A stretch of 64,000 nucleotides of DNA from Candidatus Omnitrophota bacterium (lineage in GTDB: Bacteria; Omnitrophota; Omnitrophia; Omnitrophales; Aquincolibacteriaceae): positions 103,781 to 167,780 of the forward strand of contig JAUYMS010000027.1 in assembly GCA_030698625.1 (NCBI GenBank), given 5' to 3'. Below, piece by piece: positions 47,748 through 57,063 of the stretch (positions are counted from its first letter, which is position 1; each line of letters opens with the position of its first letter). The notes beneath the pieces are model-generated. The model was not told the DNA's origin, made no database searches, and saw only the letters and a program-made list of their open reading frames with translations. The translations under genes and the position numbers were made by a program.

Positions 47748-47890
47748 GCATTAAGCGCTCACCTCAAACCTCGCGATTATCCGCAAAGATATTCCTCTGG
47801 GTATTATCCAATTCCGCTGGAGCAATTCGGCATGCTGTTTGGGACAACGCTAGGAAATGGTGCCGCCTTAATTCGTGGGGGAATAAGTAC

Positions 47891-47980
47891 GGAGAGGGGG
47901 GGATTCGAACCCCCGGTAGAGTGTTACCCCTACAGCGGTTTAGCAAACCGCCGCACTAAGCCGGGCTATGCGACCTCTCC
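47891..47980 (-). tRNA. tRNA-Ser (anticodon GCT)
   Basis: Reverse-complement GGAGAGGTCGCATAGCCCGGCTTAGTGCGGCGGTTTGCTAAACCGC...GGGGGTTCGAATCCCCCCCTCTCCG. The anticodon stem is GCGGT/ACCGC with loop TTGCTAA, plus a long variable arm. CCA is not encoded. Confidence 0.8.
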
Positions 47981-48007
47981 ATAAATGAATAGTGCTCAAT
48001 TAGACTT

Positions 48008-48091
48008 CGGAGGGCGAGGGACTCGAACCCCCAAGTCCTTTCGGACGGCGGTTTTCAAGACCGCTGCCTTGCCAATTCGGCGCAGCCCTCC
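48008..48091 (-). tRNA. tRNA-Ser (anticodon TGA)
   Basis: Reverse-complement GGAGGGCTGCGCCGAATTGGCAAGGCAGCGGTCTTGAAAACCGCCGTCCGAAAGGACTTGGGGGTTCGAGTCCCTCGCCCTCCG. The anticodon arm GCGGT-CTTGAAA-ACCGC and variable arm CGTCCGAAAGGAC closely parallel tRNA-Ser(UGA) of model bacteria. The acceptor/D-arm junction is slightly non-canonical, so ends are +/-2 nt. Confidence 0.7.
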
Positions 48092-48099
48092 ATCAAACC

Positions 48100-49353
48100 T
48101 TACGACAGATAGGCTGCCAGCGCCTCCGGAAAGTTAACCTTTCCGTCTGCCGTCTGAAAATTCTCGAGGAGGCAAAGAACCGTTCGCGCCAACGCAACGC
48201 CCGACCCGTTGAGCGTGTGCACAAACTCCACTTTCCCTGTCTTGCTCGACCGATACCGCACATTGATACGTCGCGCCTGAAAATCGCCAAACATACTGCA
48301 ACTCGAAATCTCATACCACTTTTCACTTACCGGCGCCCAGACCTCAAGATCATAACACTTTGACGATGCAAAACTCATGTCCCCGCTCCCAAGAAGCACG
48401 ACGCGATAAGGAAGTTCGAGGGCCTGTAAAATTGCTTCGGCATTTTCAACCAGCGTTTCTAATTCTTCGGACGCGCTCTCCGGTTTCACAAATTTGACCA
48501 TCTCAACTTTATCAAATTGATGCACGCGCGACAAACCCCGCGTGTCTTTTCCGTACGACCCTGCTTCCCGGCGAAAGCACGGCGAATACGCCACGTACCG
48601 CACAGGCAACTGCTTTTCGTCCAGAGTCTCATCCCTTAACAGATTCGTCACCGGCACTTCAGCTGTTGGAACTAGAAACAAATCATCGTCTCGCAAAGCG
48701 TACATGTCTTCTTCTAAATTCGGCAATTGCCCCGTTCCGGTCATCGACGTCCGGTTGACCAATGCCGGCGGCCACACTTCCGTGTAGCCGTGTTTGGAGA
48801 CATGGAGATCGACCATGAAGTTGATCAGTGTTCGCTCCAGCTTCGCCCCAAAGCCCTGGTACACAGGGAACGCTGAGCCGGTGATCTTACTGCCGCGCTC
48901 CATGGAAAGCCAGCCCAAATCCTTGGCTAAATCAAGGTGATCTTTAGCCGCGAAATCATGTTTTCGGGGCTCCCCCCAGGTCCGAACCACCTTATTACCC
49001 GTAGTGCCGCGTGCGACAGGCACTGTTTCATCGGGTAAGTTTGGGATTGTATACATAATAGTGGCGATTTTTTCTTCAATATCCCCCACTTCTGTATCAA
49101 TTTCTTTTATTTGTTGGGATGACGTCTTAATCGTGGAAATAACCGTTTCCGCAGATTCGCCCTTCTTCTTCAGTCTGGAGATTTCGTCATTGGCCTGGTT
49201 GCGTTGGGATTTAAGTTGCTCGACATCCTGAATGAGGTTACGTCTTCGCCGGTCCAGATCCAGAAGTTCATCTAGGGGGAGGGTGGCTCCTTTGGCAGCA
49301 AGGCCCTGTTGTGCGGCGTCAGGATTTTCCCTTATCCACCTGATGTCGAGCAC
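48100..49353 (-). CDS. serS: seryl-tRNA synthetase
   Basis: 417 aa with an N-terminal coiled-coil arm and a class II aaRS core (FRREAGS, GSGVAL-type motifs: YSPCFRREAGSYGKDTRGLSRVHQFDKVE and TLNGSGVALARTV). Confidence 0.9.
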   Translation of the reverse strand: MLDIRWIRENPDAAQQGLAAKGATLPLDELLDLDRRRRNLIQDVEQLKSQRNQANDEISRLKKKGESAETVISTIKTSSQQIKEIDTEVGDIEEKIATIMYTIPNLPDETVPVARGTTGNKVVRTWGEPRKHDFAAKDHLDLAKDLGWLSMERGSKITGSAFPVYQGFGAKLERTLINFMVDLHVSKHGYTEVWPPALVNRTSMTGTGQLPNLEEDMYALRDDDLFLVPTAEVPVTNLLRDETLDEKQLPVRYVAYSPCFRREAGSYGKDTRGLSRVHQFDKVEMVKFVKPESASEELETLVENAEAILQALELPYRVVLLGSGDMSFASSKCYDLEVWAPVSEKWYEISSCSMFGDFQARRINVRYRSSKTGKVEFVHTLNGSGVALARTVLCLLENFQTADGKVNFPEALAAYLS

Positions 49354-49355
49354 AA

Positions 49356-51851
49356 CTATGTCCCCGCCTTGCCCTTTTTCTCAAGGTCCAGTTCGGGATT
49401 TTCCTCTTCCTTTTCGACGACCCGTGCAGCGGCAGCGACTTTATCGTTGCCTTTAAGACGAATCACACGAACACCGACGGCATTGCGCCCGGAAGTGCGA
49501 ATCTGATCCACGGGGCACCGCACCACCATTCCGCCCGAGGTCACGATGATTAGCTCGTCTTGCTCCTGAACAGAAATGACTTTTATTACATTTCCATTTT
49601 TCGCGGCGACTTTTAGGTTGATAATCCCCTTACCGCCGCGGGATTGAATGCGATACTCTTTGAATTTAGTCTTCTTCCCGAATCCCAATTGAGTTATCGT
49701 TAAGGCTGTGGCATTAGGGTCAACGATCTCCATCCCGATCGCCCTATCCCCTTTTCCGAGCGCGATTCCACGAACACCCGAGGCCGTTCGCCCCATCTCG
49801 CGGACGTCTTTTTCCGAAAAGCGAATCGCCTTACCCGCCTGTGTGGGAATAAAAATCTCGTCTTTTCCCGATGTGATTCTGCAAGACACGAGCTCATCTT
49901 TATCGCGTAGCGAAATGGCCGTGATGCCATTTGAACGCGGCCGCGAATACTGAATGAGATTGGTCTTCTTGACGATACCGTTTTTTGTGATCATTACGAC
50001 AAACCGTTTGTCGTCGTACTCCTTAACCTGCAGATAGCTCGATACAACCTCTCCCGGCCTGAGCGACAACAGGTTGACGATAGCCTTCCCCCGTGCCTGG
50101 CGCGAGGCCTGCGGAAGTTCATACGCCTTTCGCCAATAACAGCGGCCCGTGTTCGTAAAAAAGAGGATCGAATCATGCGTGGAAGCTAGAAACATATGCT
50201 GGATAAAATCCTGGTCGTCTCGCAGGCTCGACCCTGTAACGCCGGATCCTCCCCGCCGTTGTTGGCGGTACATCGTCACGGGAATACGTTTTATGTATCC
50301 CGCATACGACATCGTAATAAGAACGTCTTCCTCCGCGATAAGGTCCTCGATCTCCATCTCCTGCTCGGCAGCAACAATCTGCGTTCTGCGCGCGTCGCCA
50401 AACTTTTTCACAACTTCCCGCGACTCCTCCTGGACGATATCGAGAACCTTCTTGCGGCTCTTCAAAACACCCCGGAAATACTCGATCCTTTTGATTAACT
50501 CCAAGTATTCTTCGTCTATTTTTTTGCGTTCCAGCTGAGTCAATCGCTGCAGCTGCATCTCCAAAATGGCCTGTGCCTGTCTGTCGCTTAATTTCAACTT
50601 TGACGTCAGCTCTTCCTTTGCTTCCTGTGGGCTTTTTGAAGCGCGGATAATCTTAATTACCTTGTCGAGATTTGAGATCGCGATTTTCAACCCCTCAAGA
50701 ATATGGGCCCTCTTCTCGGCTTTAGCCAATTCAAAGCGCGTCCGCCGCATGACGACATCCACGCGGAATTCGATGAAATGCTGAATCATTTGTTTCAAAT
50801 TCAAAACTCGCGGCTGGCCACCTACCAATGCCAGCATGATCACGCCGAATGTTTCTTGCATCTGGGTATGTTTGTAGAGAAGATTAAGCACGATTTGCGG
50901 AATGGCGTCCCGCTTGAGCTCGATGACCAAGCGCATACCGTCACGATCCGATTCGTCGCGGATATCATGAATGCCCTCGATCTTCTTGGACTCGACCAGC
51001 CCGGCGGCGGTTTCGATGAGATTGGTCTTGTTGACTTGATACGGAATTTCAGTGATGACAATAGCATCCTTCTTGCCCGTCCCGGTTTCAATGGCCGCCT
51101 TCGCCCGCATCACGATTCTGCCGCGGCCGGTTTCGAACGCATTTCGAATGCCTTCACGGCCCAAGATCGATCCCCCGGTCGGAAAATCGGGACCTTTGAC
51201 TATTTTTAAAAGTTCTTTGATGGTGATGTCGGGATTTTCAATCGTAGCCTCAATTGCCGCCCCGATCTCGGTTAGGTTGTGCGGCGGAATATTCGTCGCC
51301 ATGCCGACAGCGATGCCCCCGGAACCGTTGATGAGAAGATTGGGTAGTGTTGACGGCAACACGGTCGGCTCTTCGAGAGATTCGTCAAAGTTGGCAGTAA
51401 AATCAACGGTCTCCTTATCGATGTCCGAAAGAATTTCATTACTGACAGCAGCGAGACGCGCTTCGGTGTAACGCATGGCCGCCGCACTATCCCCATCGAT
51501 AGAGCCAAAGTTTCCTTGCCCGTCAATGAGCGGATAACGCAGGGAAAAATCCTGCACCATTCGGACCAAAGACTCATACACCGCCACGTCTCCGTGCGGG
51601 TGATATTTCCCGAGCACCTCTCCGACGATACGGGCAGATTTCTTATAGGCTTTATTGTGGGCAAGCCCCAGATCGTTCATGGCAAAAAGAATACGCCGAT
51701 GTACCGGTTTCAAGCCATCGCGTACATCCGGTAGGGCTCGACCCACGATAACCGACATCGCATAATCGATGTAGGAATCCCGCATCTCATCTTCGATGGG
51801 AACAGGAACAATCTTTTCATTTAGTGCGTATAAATTTTTTCCTTCTGCCAT
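49356..51851 (-). CDS. gyrA: DNA gyrase subunit A
   Basis: 831 aa. The N-terminus [36 protein letters not shown]...[10 protein letters not shown] contains the active-site Tyr region, followed by C-terminal beta-pinwheel repeats. Confidence 0.95.
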
Positions 51852-51854
51852 GAT

Positions 51855-53186
51855 TTACCCCTTCGTTGGCAAGCTTTTCTTTAGCTTCGCTTTGCTCTTC
51901 TTTTTACCGCTTTTTGCGGTGCGTCCCTTTGAGACATTTGGCTCGTGGGTCAATTCCGCGGTCTTCTCCAGCGCCCGCCCGCTTCGCGGTATTTCGACAA
52001 AAAAGAGGCTTCCCTTTCCAACTTTCGAATGAAATCCAATCTTGCCCCCCAAGCTCGCTACCATCTCTTTTGAAATGGCGAGCCCGAGGCCGTGCCCCAC
52101 GGCCCCGCCTTGTTCACGCAATTGCTTCAAAACTGCGGACTTACTGAAGATAATACGTTTGTCCTTTTCGCTGATTCCAGGCCCCTGATCCTCGACTTCA
52201 AGCCGCACATAATCCTGATGTGACTTGAGGCGCAAATGGATATCCGTGGCCTCGCGCGCATATTTGACGGCGTTATCAATGAGGTTCATCATCACCTCGT
52301 ACATCTTGCGCTCGTTTGTCATAACCCTTGAACGATGATCGCGTTTTTCAGGCAGACTCAATTCAACGTGGACCCGTTTGCGCCTTGCCTTGACCGCAAA
52401 ATTCGCTGCCAGTTCTTCCAGGAGCGCGGCCAAATCGACGTCGGTTGTTTCTGCCACCCCACTCTGAACCTCGGTGGCCATTCCGATTAAGTTATCAAAG
52501 AGGTCTAACAGCCTCTTGATGTTTCTTTTGGCAAGCTCCAAGAACTCCTGCTGAGAGTCGGTGATCGGCCCAAGCTCCCCCTCCTCCATAAGACGGAGAA
52601 CTTCTTGCACGCATGTGAGCGGAATCGCGAAATCGTGCGAGACTTCCGCGATCTGTTGCACAGGCTTCTTTTCAAGCCATTCGATCTCTTTTCGAAGCCG
52701 CTCGTTTTCGATGAGGACGGCGAGTTGCATACCGAACATTTCGAGATCTTTTAACTCTCGCTCGGAAAACTTCGCCCCGCTCTTCTTTTCCGAGATACTG
52801 AGCACGCCGTAAACCTTACCGCGCAACTTCAGCGGAATGCAAATAAACGCTCCGGACCGAAAACCTTTTTCCTTTTTTTCTTTTCGGAAGAGCGGATTTT
52901 TTTCAATGTCGCCGACAAGCAACGCTTCACCCCGCTCGGCTACCCAACCCGCGATGCCTTGCCCGAGCTTGATGCGCGCCTTCGTCTTAAGGCTTGGGCT
53001 GAGCCCTTCGGACTCATGAATAAACAGTTCTCGGCGCGTCTCGTCGAGCAGCATCAACGAGACGCGCTTTACTTTGAAAGATTGCGAGATGCTTCTCAGG
53101 TAAGCCCGGTAAACCGCGTCTATACGGTTTGTCTGCTCGAGCATCTGGTCAACATGGCAAAGCAGCTTCTCTGCTTCTCTCAACAT
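51855..53186 (-). CDS. cytoplasmic sensor histidine kinase with N-terminal GAF domain
   Basis: 443 aa with no TM. A GAF-like N-terminal half is followed by a HisKA-like H-box (AEVSHDFAIPLT) and HATPase_c N/G1/G2 boxes (MMNLIDNAVKYA, DQGPGIS, GHGLGLAISKEMV). It has a Lys-rich C-terminal tail. Only 3-nt spacers separate it from gyrB and gyrA. Confidence 0.8.
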   Translation of the reverse strand: MLREAEKLLCHVDQMLEQTNRIDAVYRAYLRSISQSFKVKRVSLMLLDETRRELFIHESEGLSPSLKTKARIKLGQGIAGWVAERGEALLVGDIEKNPLFRKEKKEKGFRSGAFICIPLKLRGKVYGVLSISEKKSGAKFSERELKDLEMFGMQLAVLIENERLRKEIEWLEKKPVQQIAEVSHDFAIPLTCVQEVLRLMEEGELGPITDSQQEFLELAKRNIKRLLDLFDNLIGMATEVQSGVAETTDVDLAALLEELAANFAVKARRKRVHVELSLPEKRDHRSRVMTNERKMYEVMMNLIDNAVKYAREATDIHLRLKSHQDYVRLEVEDQGPGISEKDKRIIFSKSAVLKQLREQGGAVGHGLGLAISKEMVASLGGKIGFHSKVGKGSLFFVEIPRSGRALEKTAELTHEPNVSKGRTAKSGKKKSKAKLKKSLPTKG

Positions 53187-53189
53187 ACC

Positions 53190-55948
<2,759 letters not shown>

Positions 55949-55950
55949 CT

Positions 55951-57063
55951 TTAATTGAGCTGCATCGGCATGACAACATACAGATAACCATCTTTACCTT
56001 TCAGTAAACCCGGCCTGTCTGCGTCTGTCAGCGAGAAGGAAACCTTTTCAACATCAAGATTCTTCAATACGTCGATTAAATAATTCGGATTGAACCCTAT
56101 AGCGATCTCAGGCCCGTTAAGACTGGCCGGTAATTCCTCTTTCGCTTCCCCCAAATTAGGCGATCTCGATGAAATTAGAATTTTACCTTGGACAAAATCC
56201 ATCTTTACTGCCGGCGACTCAGCGGATGTCAAAAGTGCCGTGCGTTTGACCGCCTGTAAGAAATCTTCGCGGTTGGCTTCTGAAAGGGTTTTTTCTTCTT
56301 TTGGAATCACTTGCTCATAGTTGGGGAAGTTGCCTTCGATGAGCCGGGAAAATAAATAGGTATCGCCGACCTTAAAAATGACCTGATTGTTCGAAGGAAT
56401 AACAGCCAAGTCTCCTTCCCAACCAAGGATTTTCGATAACTCCTGCACGGCCTTGCTCGGAACAATCATATCGAAATCGCGCTTTGTCTTATTTTGGAAA
56501 TCTTTTTCAATGTAGGCCAGCCTGCGGCCGTCAGTTGCAATAAAACGAATCTTATTTTTAATAATCGATACTAAAATCCCATTGAGAACATACCGGGTTT
56601 CATCATTAGATATCGCAAAAGAGGTTAATGTCAGGCTCTCTTTAAAAATGGCTTGCTCCATCTCAAATGCCGCTTCCGGATTCACTTCGGGAAGTTTCGG
56701 GTAGTCTTCTTTCGACAGCCCCATAATCTTAAAGAAAGCCTTTCCTGATTTAATACTTACGGCATTATTTTTAGCAACTGAAACCTCGACGGTTCCTTGC
56801 GGTAACTCCCGCACGATTTCATGAAGCTTTCGGGCGGGAACCGTGATACTGCCGGACTTTTTAACACTCGCTTCAATCTGGGTAGAAATTCCAACTTCAA
56901 GATCGGTGCCTATAACCCTAAGAATGTCTCCGTCTTCAGCTTCTAAAAGAAGGTTTCCTAATATGGGAAGCGTATTTGTTTTTGAAGAGGCCACACTTCC
57001 GGCTAGGCCGATGGCTTTGAGAAATTCCGCCTTCTTAACTTGTATTTCCATGAGTCCTTCCAC
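55951..57063 (-). CDS. dnaN: DNA polymerase III beta sliding clamp
   Basis: 370 aa with three-domain clamp colinearity (…LKAIGLAGSVASSKTNTLPILGNLLLEA…). The true start may be MEIQV (57051). Confidence 0.9.
   Translation of the reverse strand: MEGLMEIQVKKAEFLKAIGLAGSVASSKTNTLPILGNLLLEAEDGDILRVIGTDLEVGISTQIEASVKKSGSITVPARKLHEIVRELPQGTVEVSVAKNNAVSIKSGKAFFKIMGLSKEDYPKLPEVNPEAAFEMEQAIFKESLTLTSFAISNDETRYVLNGILVSIIKNKIRFIATDGRRLAYIEKDFQNKTKRDFDMIVPSKAVQELSKILGWEGDLAVIPSNNQVIFKVGDTYLFSRLIEGNFPNYEQVIPKEEKTLSEANREDFLQAVKRTALLTSAESPAVKMDFVQGKILISSRSPNLGEAKEELPASLNGPEIAIGFNPNYLIDVLKNLDVEKVSFSLTDADRPGLLKGKDGYLYVVMPMQLN

Follow-up and report, generated by a model that had tools for sequence, protein, structure and literature searches.

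Why should the gene for a sensor kinase lie between the genes for the two subunits of DNA gyrase, and does its lying there say anything about how gyrase is controlled? The question is posed by a 64,000-nt stretch of a Candidatus Omnitrophota genome (contig JAUYMS010000027.1 of assembly GCA_030698625.1, positions 103,781 to 167,780 of the forward strand; hereafter the window), in which gyrB and gyrA are separated by a single gene whose product carries a GAF domain. By its sequence this product is a two-component sensor histidine kinase of class I (HisKA plus HATPase_c). The reading that we favour, with moderate confidence, is that it is a genuine soluble orphan GAF kinase, that its simplest history is a single insertion between gyrB and gyrA followed by vertical descent, and that it is co-expressed with gyrase while its partner regulator is encoded elsewhere. 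The features at the centre of the question are the following.

51855-53186, minus strand: GAF-HisKA-HATPase_c sensor histidine kinase gene, an open reading frame of 443 aa plus stop with Pfam-recognised domains
53190-55655, minus strand: gyrB, 821 aa (Pfam HATPase_c, DNA_gyraseB, Toprim and DNA_gyraseB_C)
49356-51851, minus strand: gyrA, 831 aa (Pfam DNA_topoisoIV and six copies of DNA_gyraseA_C)
53187-53189, minus strand: gyrB/kinase spacer, 3 nt, GGT
51852-51854, minus strand: kinase/gyrA spacer, 3 nt, ATC

The 3-nt gaps on both sides of the kinase gene, reported in a first-pass annotation made from the sequence alone, were read directly, the junctions being ...GATATT TAA GGT ATG at the kinase start and ...AAG GGG TAA ATC ATG at the gyrA start. 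Both start codons are backed by alignment of orthologues, whose N-termini follow the patterns MLxEAEKVL in the kinase and MA..NLYA(M/L)NEK in GyrA. Open reading frames on the opposite strand over the kinase gene were rejected as short shadow frames without support, and an Rfam search of the gene and its surroundings returned no RNA element.

The protein is 100% identical to NCBI entry MDP3920092.1 (P0001 in our searches), from a 178.8-kb contig of a Candidatus Omnitrophota metagenome-assembled genome; sequencing run SRR13727534 also yields an assembly of this organism. Its domains map as follows, with confidence given as the predicted local distance difference test (pLDDT) of an AlphaFold model.

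52707-53123, minus strand: GAF sensor domain, aa 22-160 (Pfam; pLDDT about 80)
52476-52661, minus strand: DHp/HisKA helical hairpin, aa 176-237 (Pfam; model helices 176-201 and 210-237)
51984-52316, minus strand: HATPase_c catalytic ATP-binding (CA) domain, aa 291-401 (Pfam; pLDDT about 88; Foldseek)

Pfam places GAF at aa 22-160 (61 bits, with GAF_2 at 52 bits), HisKA at aa 177-235 (29.0 bits, just over the cut-off of 26.9) and HATPase_c at aa 291-401 (82.7 bits), and no transmembrane segment was found in the protein (maximum 19-residue Kyte-Doolittle hydropathy 1.24), which bears out the earlier description of a soluble GAF-HisKA-HATPase kinase between the gyrase genes. The phospho-acceptor His184 (codon CAC, 52637-52635) lies in a motif SHDF(R/A)IPL that aligns with SHELRTPL of solved kinases and is invariant in 11 orthologues, as are the N box (N301, D304 and N305), the G1 box (D333, G335 and G337) and the G2 box (H365-G-L-G-L369). 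Invariance of His184 and of all three boxes at 45-57% identity points to purifying selection on kinase chemistry. Profile comparison matched the kinase core to solved class I kinases (the YycG-type 5c93/4u7n, HK853 and VicK) with E values of 1e-33 to 1e-35, and Foldseek matched it to WalK, VicK (YycG) and HK853 with probability 1.0. The GAF fold is supported by its Pfam hits and by a confident beta-sheet with flanking helices in the model, which has a mean pLDDT of 70.7 and an ordinary layout of GAF, long helix, DHp hairpin and CA domain; GAF and CA are confident, the DHp hairpin scores lower, as expected of a model of the monomer, and disorder is predicted for residues 404-443. The kinase is thus genuine and intact and is predicted to be catalytically competent, and a degenerate kinase or pseudokinase was ruled out, every catalytic motif being invariant.

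By architecture this is a kinase of a very common kind, and its only unusual aspect is its embedded, conserved position. It shares the DHp and CA core, with its H, N, G1 and G2 boxes, with Thermotoga HK853, WalK/VicK (YycG) and PhoR; unlike these, it has no membrane anchor, HAMP or PAS domain, its single GAF domain feeds the DHp hairpin directly, and it sits inside a gyrase operon without an adjacent response regulator. The best NCBIfam equivalog was PnpS, at 123 bits against a cut-off of 400, and none came near its cut-off.

The arrangement is not a one-off insertion, as comparison with other genomes shows. A search of 5.8 billion proteins yielded ten further proteins of 397-425 aa at 50-57% identity, after which the matches fell sharply to 600-aa proteins at 29%. 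A profile built from the 11 orthologues recovered 11 protein clusters at 607-683 bits before dropping to 297 bits, and the group was monophyletic in 300/300 bootstraps of the kinase tree. We inspected the loci L001/L002, L003/L004, L005, L012, L095, L096 and L097 together with the window, eight independent lineages in all. In every one of the eight the kinase gene lies immediately downstream of gyrB and is followed by gyrA wherever the contig extends, a position kept while the kinases themselves diverged to 45-57% identity; contigs that are long enough show the full order dnaA-dnaN-dciA-gyrB-kinase-gyrA-serS. Comparative synteny was the check that the first-pass annotation had proposed, and the conserved arrangement is the result it had named as refuting its view, although no annotated function came with it. 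The 3-nt spacing is not conserved among these loci: spacers range from -4 to 59 nt between gyrB and the kinase gene and from 2 to 208 nt between the kinase gene and gyrA, and are mostly 60 nt or less.

Beyond this group the association with gyrase disappears. None of four loci of more distant homologues examined individually (at most 32% identity) adjoins gyrase, and a scan of metagenome contigs with the kinase alignment gave at least 80 loci; the matches listed are at most 41% identical, none of them adjoins gyrB or gyrA, and no further orthologue came from them. In an exhaustive hidden Markov model search of 1.84 billion representatives the orthologue group formed one 50% cluster (P0008), and the rest of the top list consisted mostly of giant multi-GAF proteins with scores summed over many stretches; the search added only fragments (P0296) and one collinear protein, P0200. 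The latter, of 405 aa, is 37% identical to the kinase and collinear with it over its full length (380 bits), has the group's N-terminal motif and the H box S-H-E-F-R-I-P-L-T-C, and its score places it between the orthologue group and every other kinase. P0020 and P0126 (29-32% identity), which rank with the closest full-length homologues beyond the group, are GAF-HisKA-HATPase kinases with the same domain order and, in P0126, a similar length; they differ in that a long branch sets them apart from the group and in never lying beside gyrase. Their loci (L008 1451-4510 and L098 772-4210) carry one to three CheY-like single-domain regulators, a PilB/MshE-type ATPase and PilM genes, neighbourhoods that hint at what sort of pathway the gyrase-embedded kinase came from.

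The kinase gene and the gyrase genes belong to a longer array, the other members of which are listed here together with the best promoter-like match of the region.

57205-58596, minus strand: dnaA, upstream part of the array (open reading frame and Pfam)
55951-57063, minus strand: dnaN, upstream part of the array (open reading frame and Pfam)
55655-55948, minus strand: dciA, upstream part of the array (open reading frame and Pfam)
48100-49353, minus strand: serS, downstream part of the array (Pfam)
48007-48092, minus strand: tRNA-Ser(tga), downstream of serS
47889-47981, minus strand: tRNA-Ser(gct), after tRNA-Ser(tga)
58736-58763, minus strand: sigma-70-like match TAGACA-16-TAGAAT upstream of dnaA, 10/12 positions, a consensus match only

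The order in the window is dnaA-dnaN-dciA-gyrB-kinase-gyrA-serS, all on the minus strand, and the genes from dnaN onwards are separated by 2 nt (dnaN/dciA), a 1-nt overlap (dciA/gyrB), 3 nt on each side of the kinase gene and 2 nt (gyrA/serS). Tight packing thus characterizes the whole stretch from dnaN to serS in this genome and is no peculiarity of the kinase. The kinase gene lies on the same strand as gyrB and gyrA and is contiguous with them, with no spacer room for independent signals, and terminator-like sites in the region numbered 12, against 15.9 expected from shuffled sequence, and so are not above chance. Given the 3-nt spacers and the lack of any terminator excess, no reading other than co-transcription is reasonable in this genome, and the kinase is probably transcribed together with gyrB and gyrA, as the packing had earlier been taken to imply, and almost certainly co-expressed with gyrase.

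No partner for the kinase was found nearby. A receiver domain was absent from all open reading frames of at least 50 aa in the window (hmmsearch --max, best E = 2), in agreement with the first-pass annotation, which had seen no cognate response regulator there, and likewise from the genes called over about 10 kb beyond each window end; neither a receiver domain nor a partner regulator was found in the eight orthologue loci. Orphan kinases are common, so that a missing adjacent regulator does not exclude membership of the two-component kinases.

The history of the gene was approached through relatives that lack it. Species-representative genomes were scanned with a lineage-specific insert region of GyrB, which returned five loci (L010-L014). 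Four of these (L010, L011, L013 and L014) have the order dnaA-dnaN-(dciA)-gyrB-gyrA-serS with nothing between gyrB and gyrA, the spacers measuring 84, 130, 77 and 13 nt, respectively; dciA was not detected in the L014 array. The kinase is present in the fifth, L012. Trees of concatenated housekeeping proteins place the kinase-free L011 (CAZEFF010000034.1) as the sister of the kinase-bearing L003 in 300/300 bootstraps, and the kinase-bearing genomes alone are monophyletic in 0/300. The robust placement of L011 means that the kinase was lost at least once, and no remnant of it was found in the L011 gyrB-gyrA spacer. That spacer (L011 10832-10961) contains a perfect 12-nt inverted repeat, TGTCATTGCGAG...CTCGCAATGACA, with arms about 60 nt apart, and two copies of an 11-mer of the repeat are present in the unrelated locus L017; a small palindromic repeat element is one possibility. 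L010 and L013 may lie outside the kinase-bearing clade, a placement that is weakly supported.

Branching in the kinase tree matches that in the gyrB tree (L001 with L096 in 300/300 bootstraps, L095 with L005 in 166/300), and the G+C content, G+C at third codon positions (GC3) and codon usage of the kinase gene are native. A discrete monophyletic group, a fixed position, agreement between trees and native composition together argue for an old, vertically inherited gene. Recent horizontal transfer was ruled out by the native composition and codon usage, by the congruent trees and by the lack of room for flanking repeats. Within the uncultivated Omnitrophota, one small lineage probably gained the kinase a single time, anciently, and at least one loss followed.

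Put together, the favoured reading would run as follows. In an Omnitrophota lineage of family level, the spacer between gyrB and gyrA of an ancestral dnaA-dnaN-dciA-gyrB-gyrA-serS array would have received a single insertion, and the kinase would then have been inherited vertically in that position. It would be transcribed, and probably translationally coupled, within a gyrB-kinase-gyrA-serS polycistron, so that its expression would follow that of gyrase. A small cytoplasmic ligand, as expected from the family, would bind the GAF domain; the signal would run down the C-terminal helix of this domain into the DHp bundle, the CA domain would phosphorylate His184, and the phosphoryl group would be received by a response regulator whose gene lies elsewhere.

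Several observations weigh against parts of this account. The HisKA match is barely above the Pfam cut-off here and "weak" or "faint" in the orthologues. The kinase/gyrA spacer of L005, at 208 nt, could hold a promoter of its own. The clade of kinase-bearing genomes plus L011 is recovered in 182/300 bootstraps with five genes and in 1/300 with gyrB alone, so the deeper tree is poorly resolved and a single gain is the simplest reading and not a shown fact. As the window, its flanks of about 10 kb and the eight orthologue loci contain no partner response regulator, phosphotransfer is assumed from family membership. Finally, positions aligned to a ligand-binding signature of related GAF domains are only partly retained.

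This last point concerns what the sensor might bind. Conservation is highest in the GAF half, with 60-68% identity over the first 177 aa against 45-53% overall. Its nearest solved relatives are domains of the cyclic AMP (cAMP) or cyclic GMP (cGMP) type, namely 5w10, PDE10A, PDE5, PDE2 and CyaB2, with 62.7 bits to 5w10, which we take to be Leptospira Lcd1, and 48.5 bits to PDE10A GAF-B. Cyclic nucleotide-binding GAF domains carry the NKFDE signature (N-K...F...D-E). The aligned positions in the kinase read E133-K134...F140...E144-L145, in which the K and F are kept and the N and the D-E pair are not; among orthologues S132 and E133 are invariant, and F140 and L145 nearly so. With the signature retained only in part, the ligand could be something other than a cyclic nucleotide. 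With the cAMP- or cGMP-binding domains of PDE2, PDE5, PDE10, Anabaena CyaB2 and Leptospira Lcd1 (5w10) the kinase shares a G(E/Q)GI(A/S)G..A plus F....(I/L)P(I/L/M) framework; it differs from them in its partial NKFDE signature and in its output, which is a histidine kinase where theirs is a cyclase, phosphodiesterase or diguanylate cyclase. The GAF domain of Leptospira Lcd1 is activated by cAMP (PMC8846402). A ligand of the cyclic nucleotide class is best treated as a lead and not as a result.

Does the kinase, then, act on gyrase? Coupling of a GAF-sensed signal to the topoisomerase operon, as the first-pass annotation proposed, is no more than a possibility. The only demonstrated tie between the kinase and gyrase is position, with a probable shared transcript; the gene was cleanly lost in L011, whose array is otherwise unchanged, and no residue, column or indel of GyrB or GyrA was found to track the presence of the kinase, in comparisons whose power is limited by their size (7 versus 4 and 5 versus 4 sequences). 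The gyrase link supported by the data is one of shared position and co-expression, as distinct from a demonstrated action on gyrase or its operon, and a regulatory role of the kinase in DNA topology or replication is a minority possibility.

The rival account that survives best would make the kinase a dedicated regulator of topology or replication: a ligand bound by the GAF domain would act through the kinase and a distal response regulator on transcription of the dnaA/gyrBA array or on replication timing, and the gene would be kept in the gyrase operon for its function. In its favour are the position kept at all eight loci despite divergence to 45-57% identity, the very short spacers in several lineages (4-nt overlaps and gaps of 2-3 nt among them), the strong conservation of the sensor half, and the fact that homologues outside the group never adjoin gyrase. 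However, all relatives share a collinear flanking array, even kinase-free outgroups that are about 60% identical, and inertia alone would thus keep the kinase in place. The array of L011 also remained intact when the kinase was cleanly lost, no GyrB or GyrA column tracks the kinase, and no regulator or DNA-binding partner lies nearby. Nor is the arrangement mentioned in the literature that we searched on gyrB-gyrA kinases and Omnitrophota signalling genes, surveys of Omnitrophota genomes included. We regard this account as unlikely. A related reading, in which the kinase is a dedicated checkpoint tying a cytoplasmic second-messenger or metabolite signal to gyrase expression or activity, and so to supercoiling and replication, whether by acting on gyrase itself or by way of a distal regulator, seems to us quite improbable.

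At the other extreme, the kinase might be an unrelated passenger that entered a highly expressed operon at a permissive spacer, has a task unconnected with DNA, and is kept there only because rearrangement of the region is rare. The collinear array of all relatives, the clean disappearance of the gene from L011 and the lack of covariation with gyrase all suit such a passenger, and its more distant homologues, which lie near ATPases of type IV pili or type II secretion and near CheY-like regulators, hint at an unrelated ancestral role. Yet this account departs from the one we favour only in denying that co-expression with gyrase matters, and the short spacers in most lineages indicate that selection has not separated the expression of the kinase from that of gyrase; we consider it unlikely.

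Weakest by far, and very improbable, is a direct gyrase modulator resembling a third subunit, which would bind or phosphorylate GyrA or GyrB with translational coupling to match stoichiometry: only the junctions of 3 nt in the window, -4 nt in L095 and 2 nt in L096, of a kind often seen for subunits of one complex, speak for it, against spacers that are not conserved and reach 59 and 208 nt, no GyrA or GyrB residue or indel specific to kinase-bearing genomes, only canonical kinase and GAF features by Pfam, Protein Data Bank (PDB) profile and fold search, and a kinase that is dispensable in L011. Known gyrase modulators include GyrI/SbmC, YacG, the pentapeptide-repeat proteins MfpA/Qnr, CcdB and ParE. 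No similarity of the kinase to any of these was found by Pfam, NCBIfam, PDB profile or Foldseek, which gave only GAF and histidine kinase matches.

The kinase also has a C-terminal extension.

51858-51959, minus strand: Lys-rich C-terminal tail, aa 410-443, predicted to be disordered and present in this genome only

The Lys-rich tail described in the first-pass annotation is real, the last 34 residues containing 11 K/R and 2 D/E, but it belongs to this genome alone: it is missing from all ten other orthologues, which end 1-12 residues past the last strand of the CA domain, and only the window protein continues for about 30 residues further, up to gyrA. Residues 404-443 have pLDDT below 50. The tail, considered as a family feature or a DNA-binding module, was accordingly rejected as a feature of the family, being disordered, confined to one genome and matched by similar tails on GyrB and GyrA of relatives. 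A purine-rich GAAGGGG lies 7-13 nt upstream of the gyrA ATG, within the tail codons, and the A-rich, purine-rich DNA of the tail likely contains the gyrA ribosome-binding site. Most simply, the tail would be a recent extension of the frame into the former, A-rich spacer between the kinase gene and gyrA. Similar sequences occur on the neighbouring proteins. In the window (55566-55655, GyrB residues 1-30) and likewise in L001, L003, L005, L010-L014, L095 and L096, the canonical Y-D-A-(T/S) start of GyrB is preceded by a variable, Lys-rich stretch of about 10-40 residues at the N-terminus. Lys-rich tails are also found at the C-terminus of GyrA in L010 and L011, both kinase-free. These genomes seem prone to basic disordered tails.

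Origin-proximal dnaA-dnaN-(recF)-gyrB-gyrA clusters are found in many bacteria, for example Bacillus, Staphylococcus and Mycobacterium. The window has the same order and orientation of replication and gyrase genes, and differs in having dciA before gyrB, serS and two tRNA-Ser genes after gyrA, and the kinase gene between gyrB and gyrA. The cumulative GC skew has its minimum near 58 kb of the window and the genes rnpA-yidD-yidC-mnmG-parA-parB lie on the far side, which together identify the array region as the origin region. The dnaA-rnpA intergenic region (58597-59041) lies at the skew minimum and is the probable oriC; the sigma-70-like match listed above falls within it. At the downstream end of the array (47889-48092), tRNA-Ser(tga) begins 7 nt past serS and is followed on the same strand by tRNA-Ser(gct), so that serS stands directly upstream of two of its tRNA substrates. 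The composition of dnaN (55951-57063; G+C 0.438, GC3 0.453) stands apart from that of dnaA, gyrB, the kinase gene and gyrA, which are clearly higher (G+C 0.50-0.52, GC3 0.55-0.62). More than half of the window (4261-38631, minus strand, 34.4 kb) is taken up by one uninterrupted open reading frame of 11,456 aa. In its first and last 5,000 residues Pfam recognised only His_Phos_1 (aa 1711-1878) and an AAA_11/AAA_12 pair resembling an SF1 helicase, the latter about 900-1,360 residues from the C-terminus. Giant genes have been reported for Omnitrophota (bioRxiv 10.1101/2023.11.21.568195; 10.64898/2026.06.07.730766).

Omnitrophota are an uncultivated, often ultra-small and possibly host-dependent phylum, and gyrase regulation is usually described as homeostatic, through supercoiling-responsive promoters and a few small inhibitor proteins. 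If the link is one of co-expression only, the locus would illustrate how little a conserved position within an ultra-stable housekeeping array says about function, since loss of the kinase leaves that array unaltered. If the checkpoint reading were true, it would represent a signalling input built into the gyrase operon itself, of a kind that we have not found in the literature. A kinase kept in the gyrBA operon of several lineages may in that sense offer a route from the state of the cell into DNA topology and replication.

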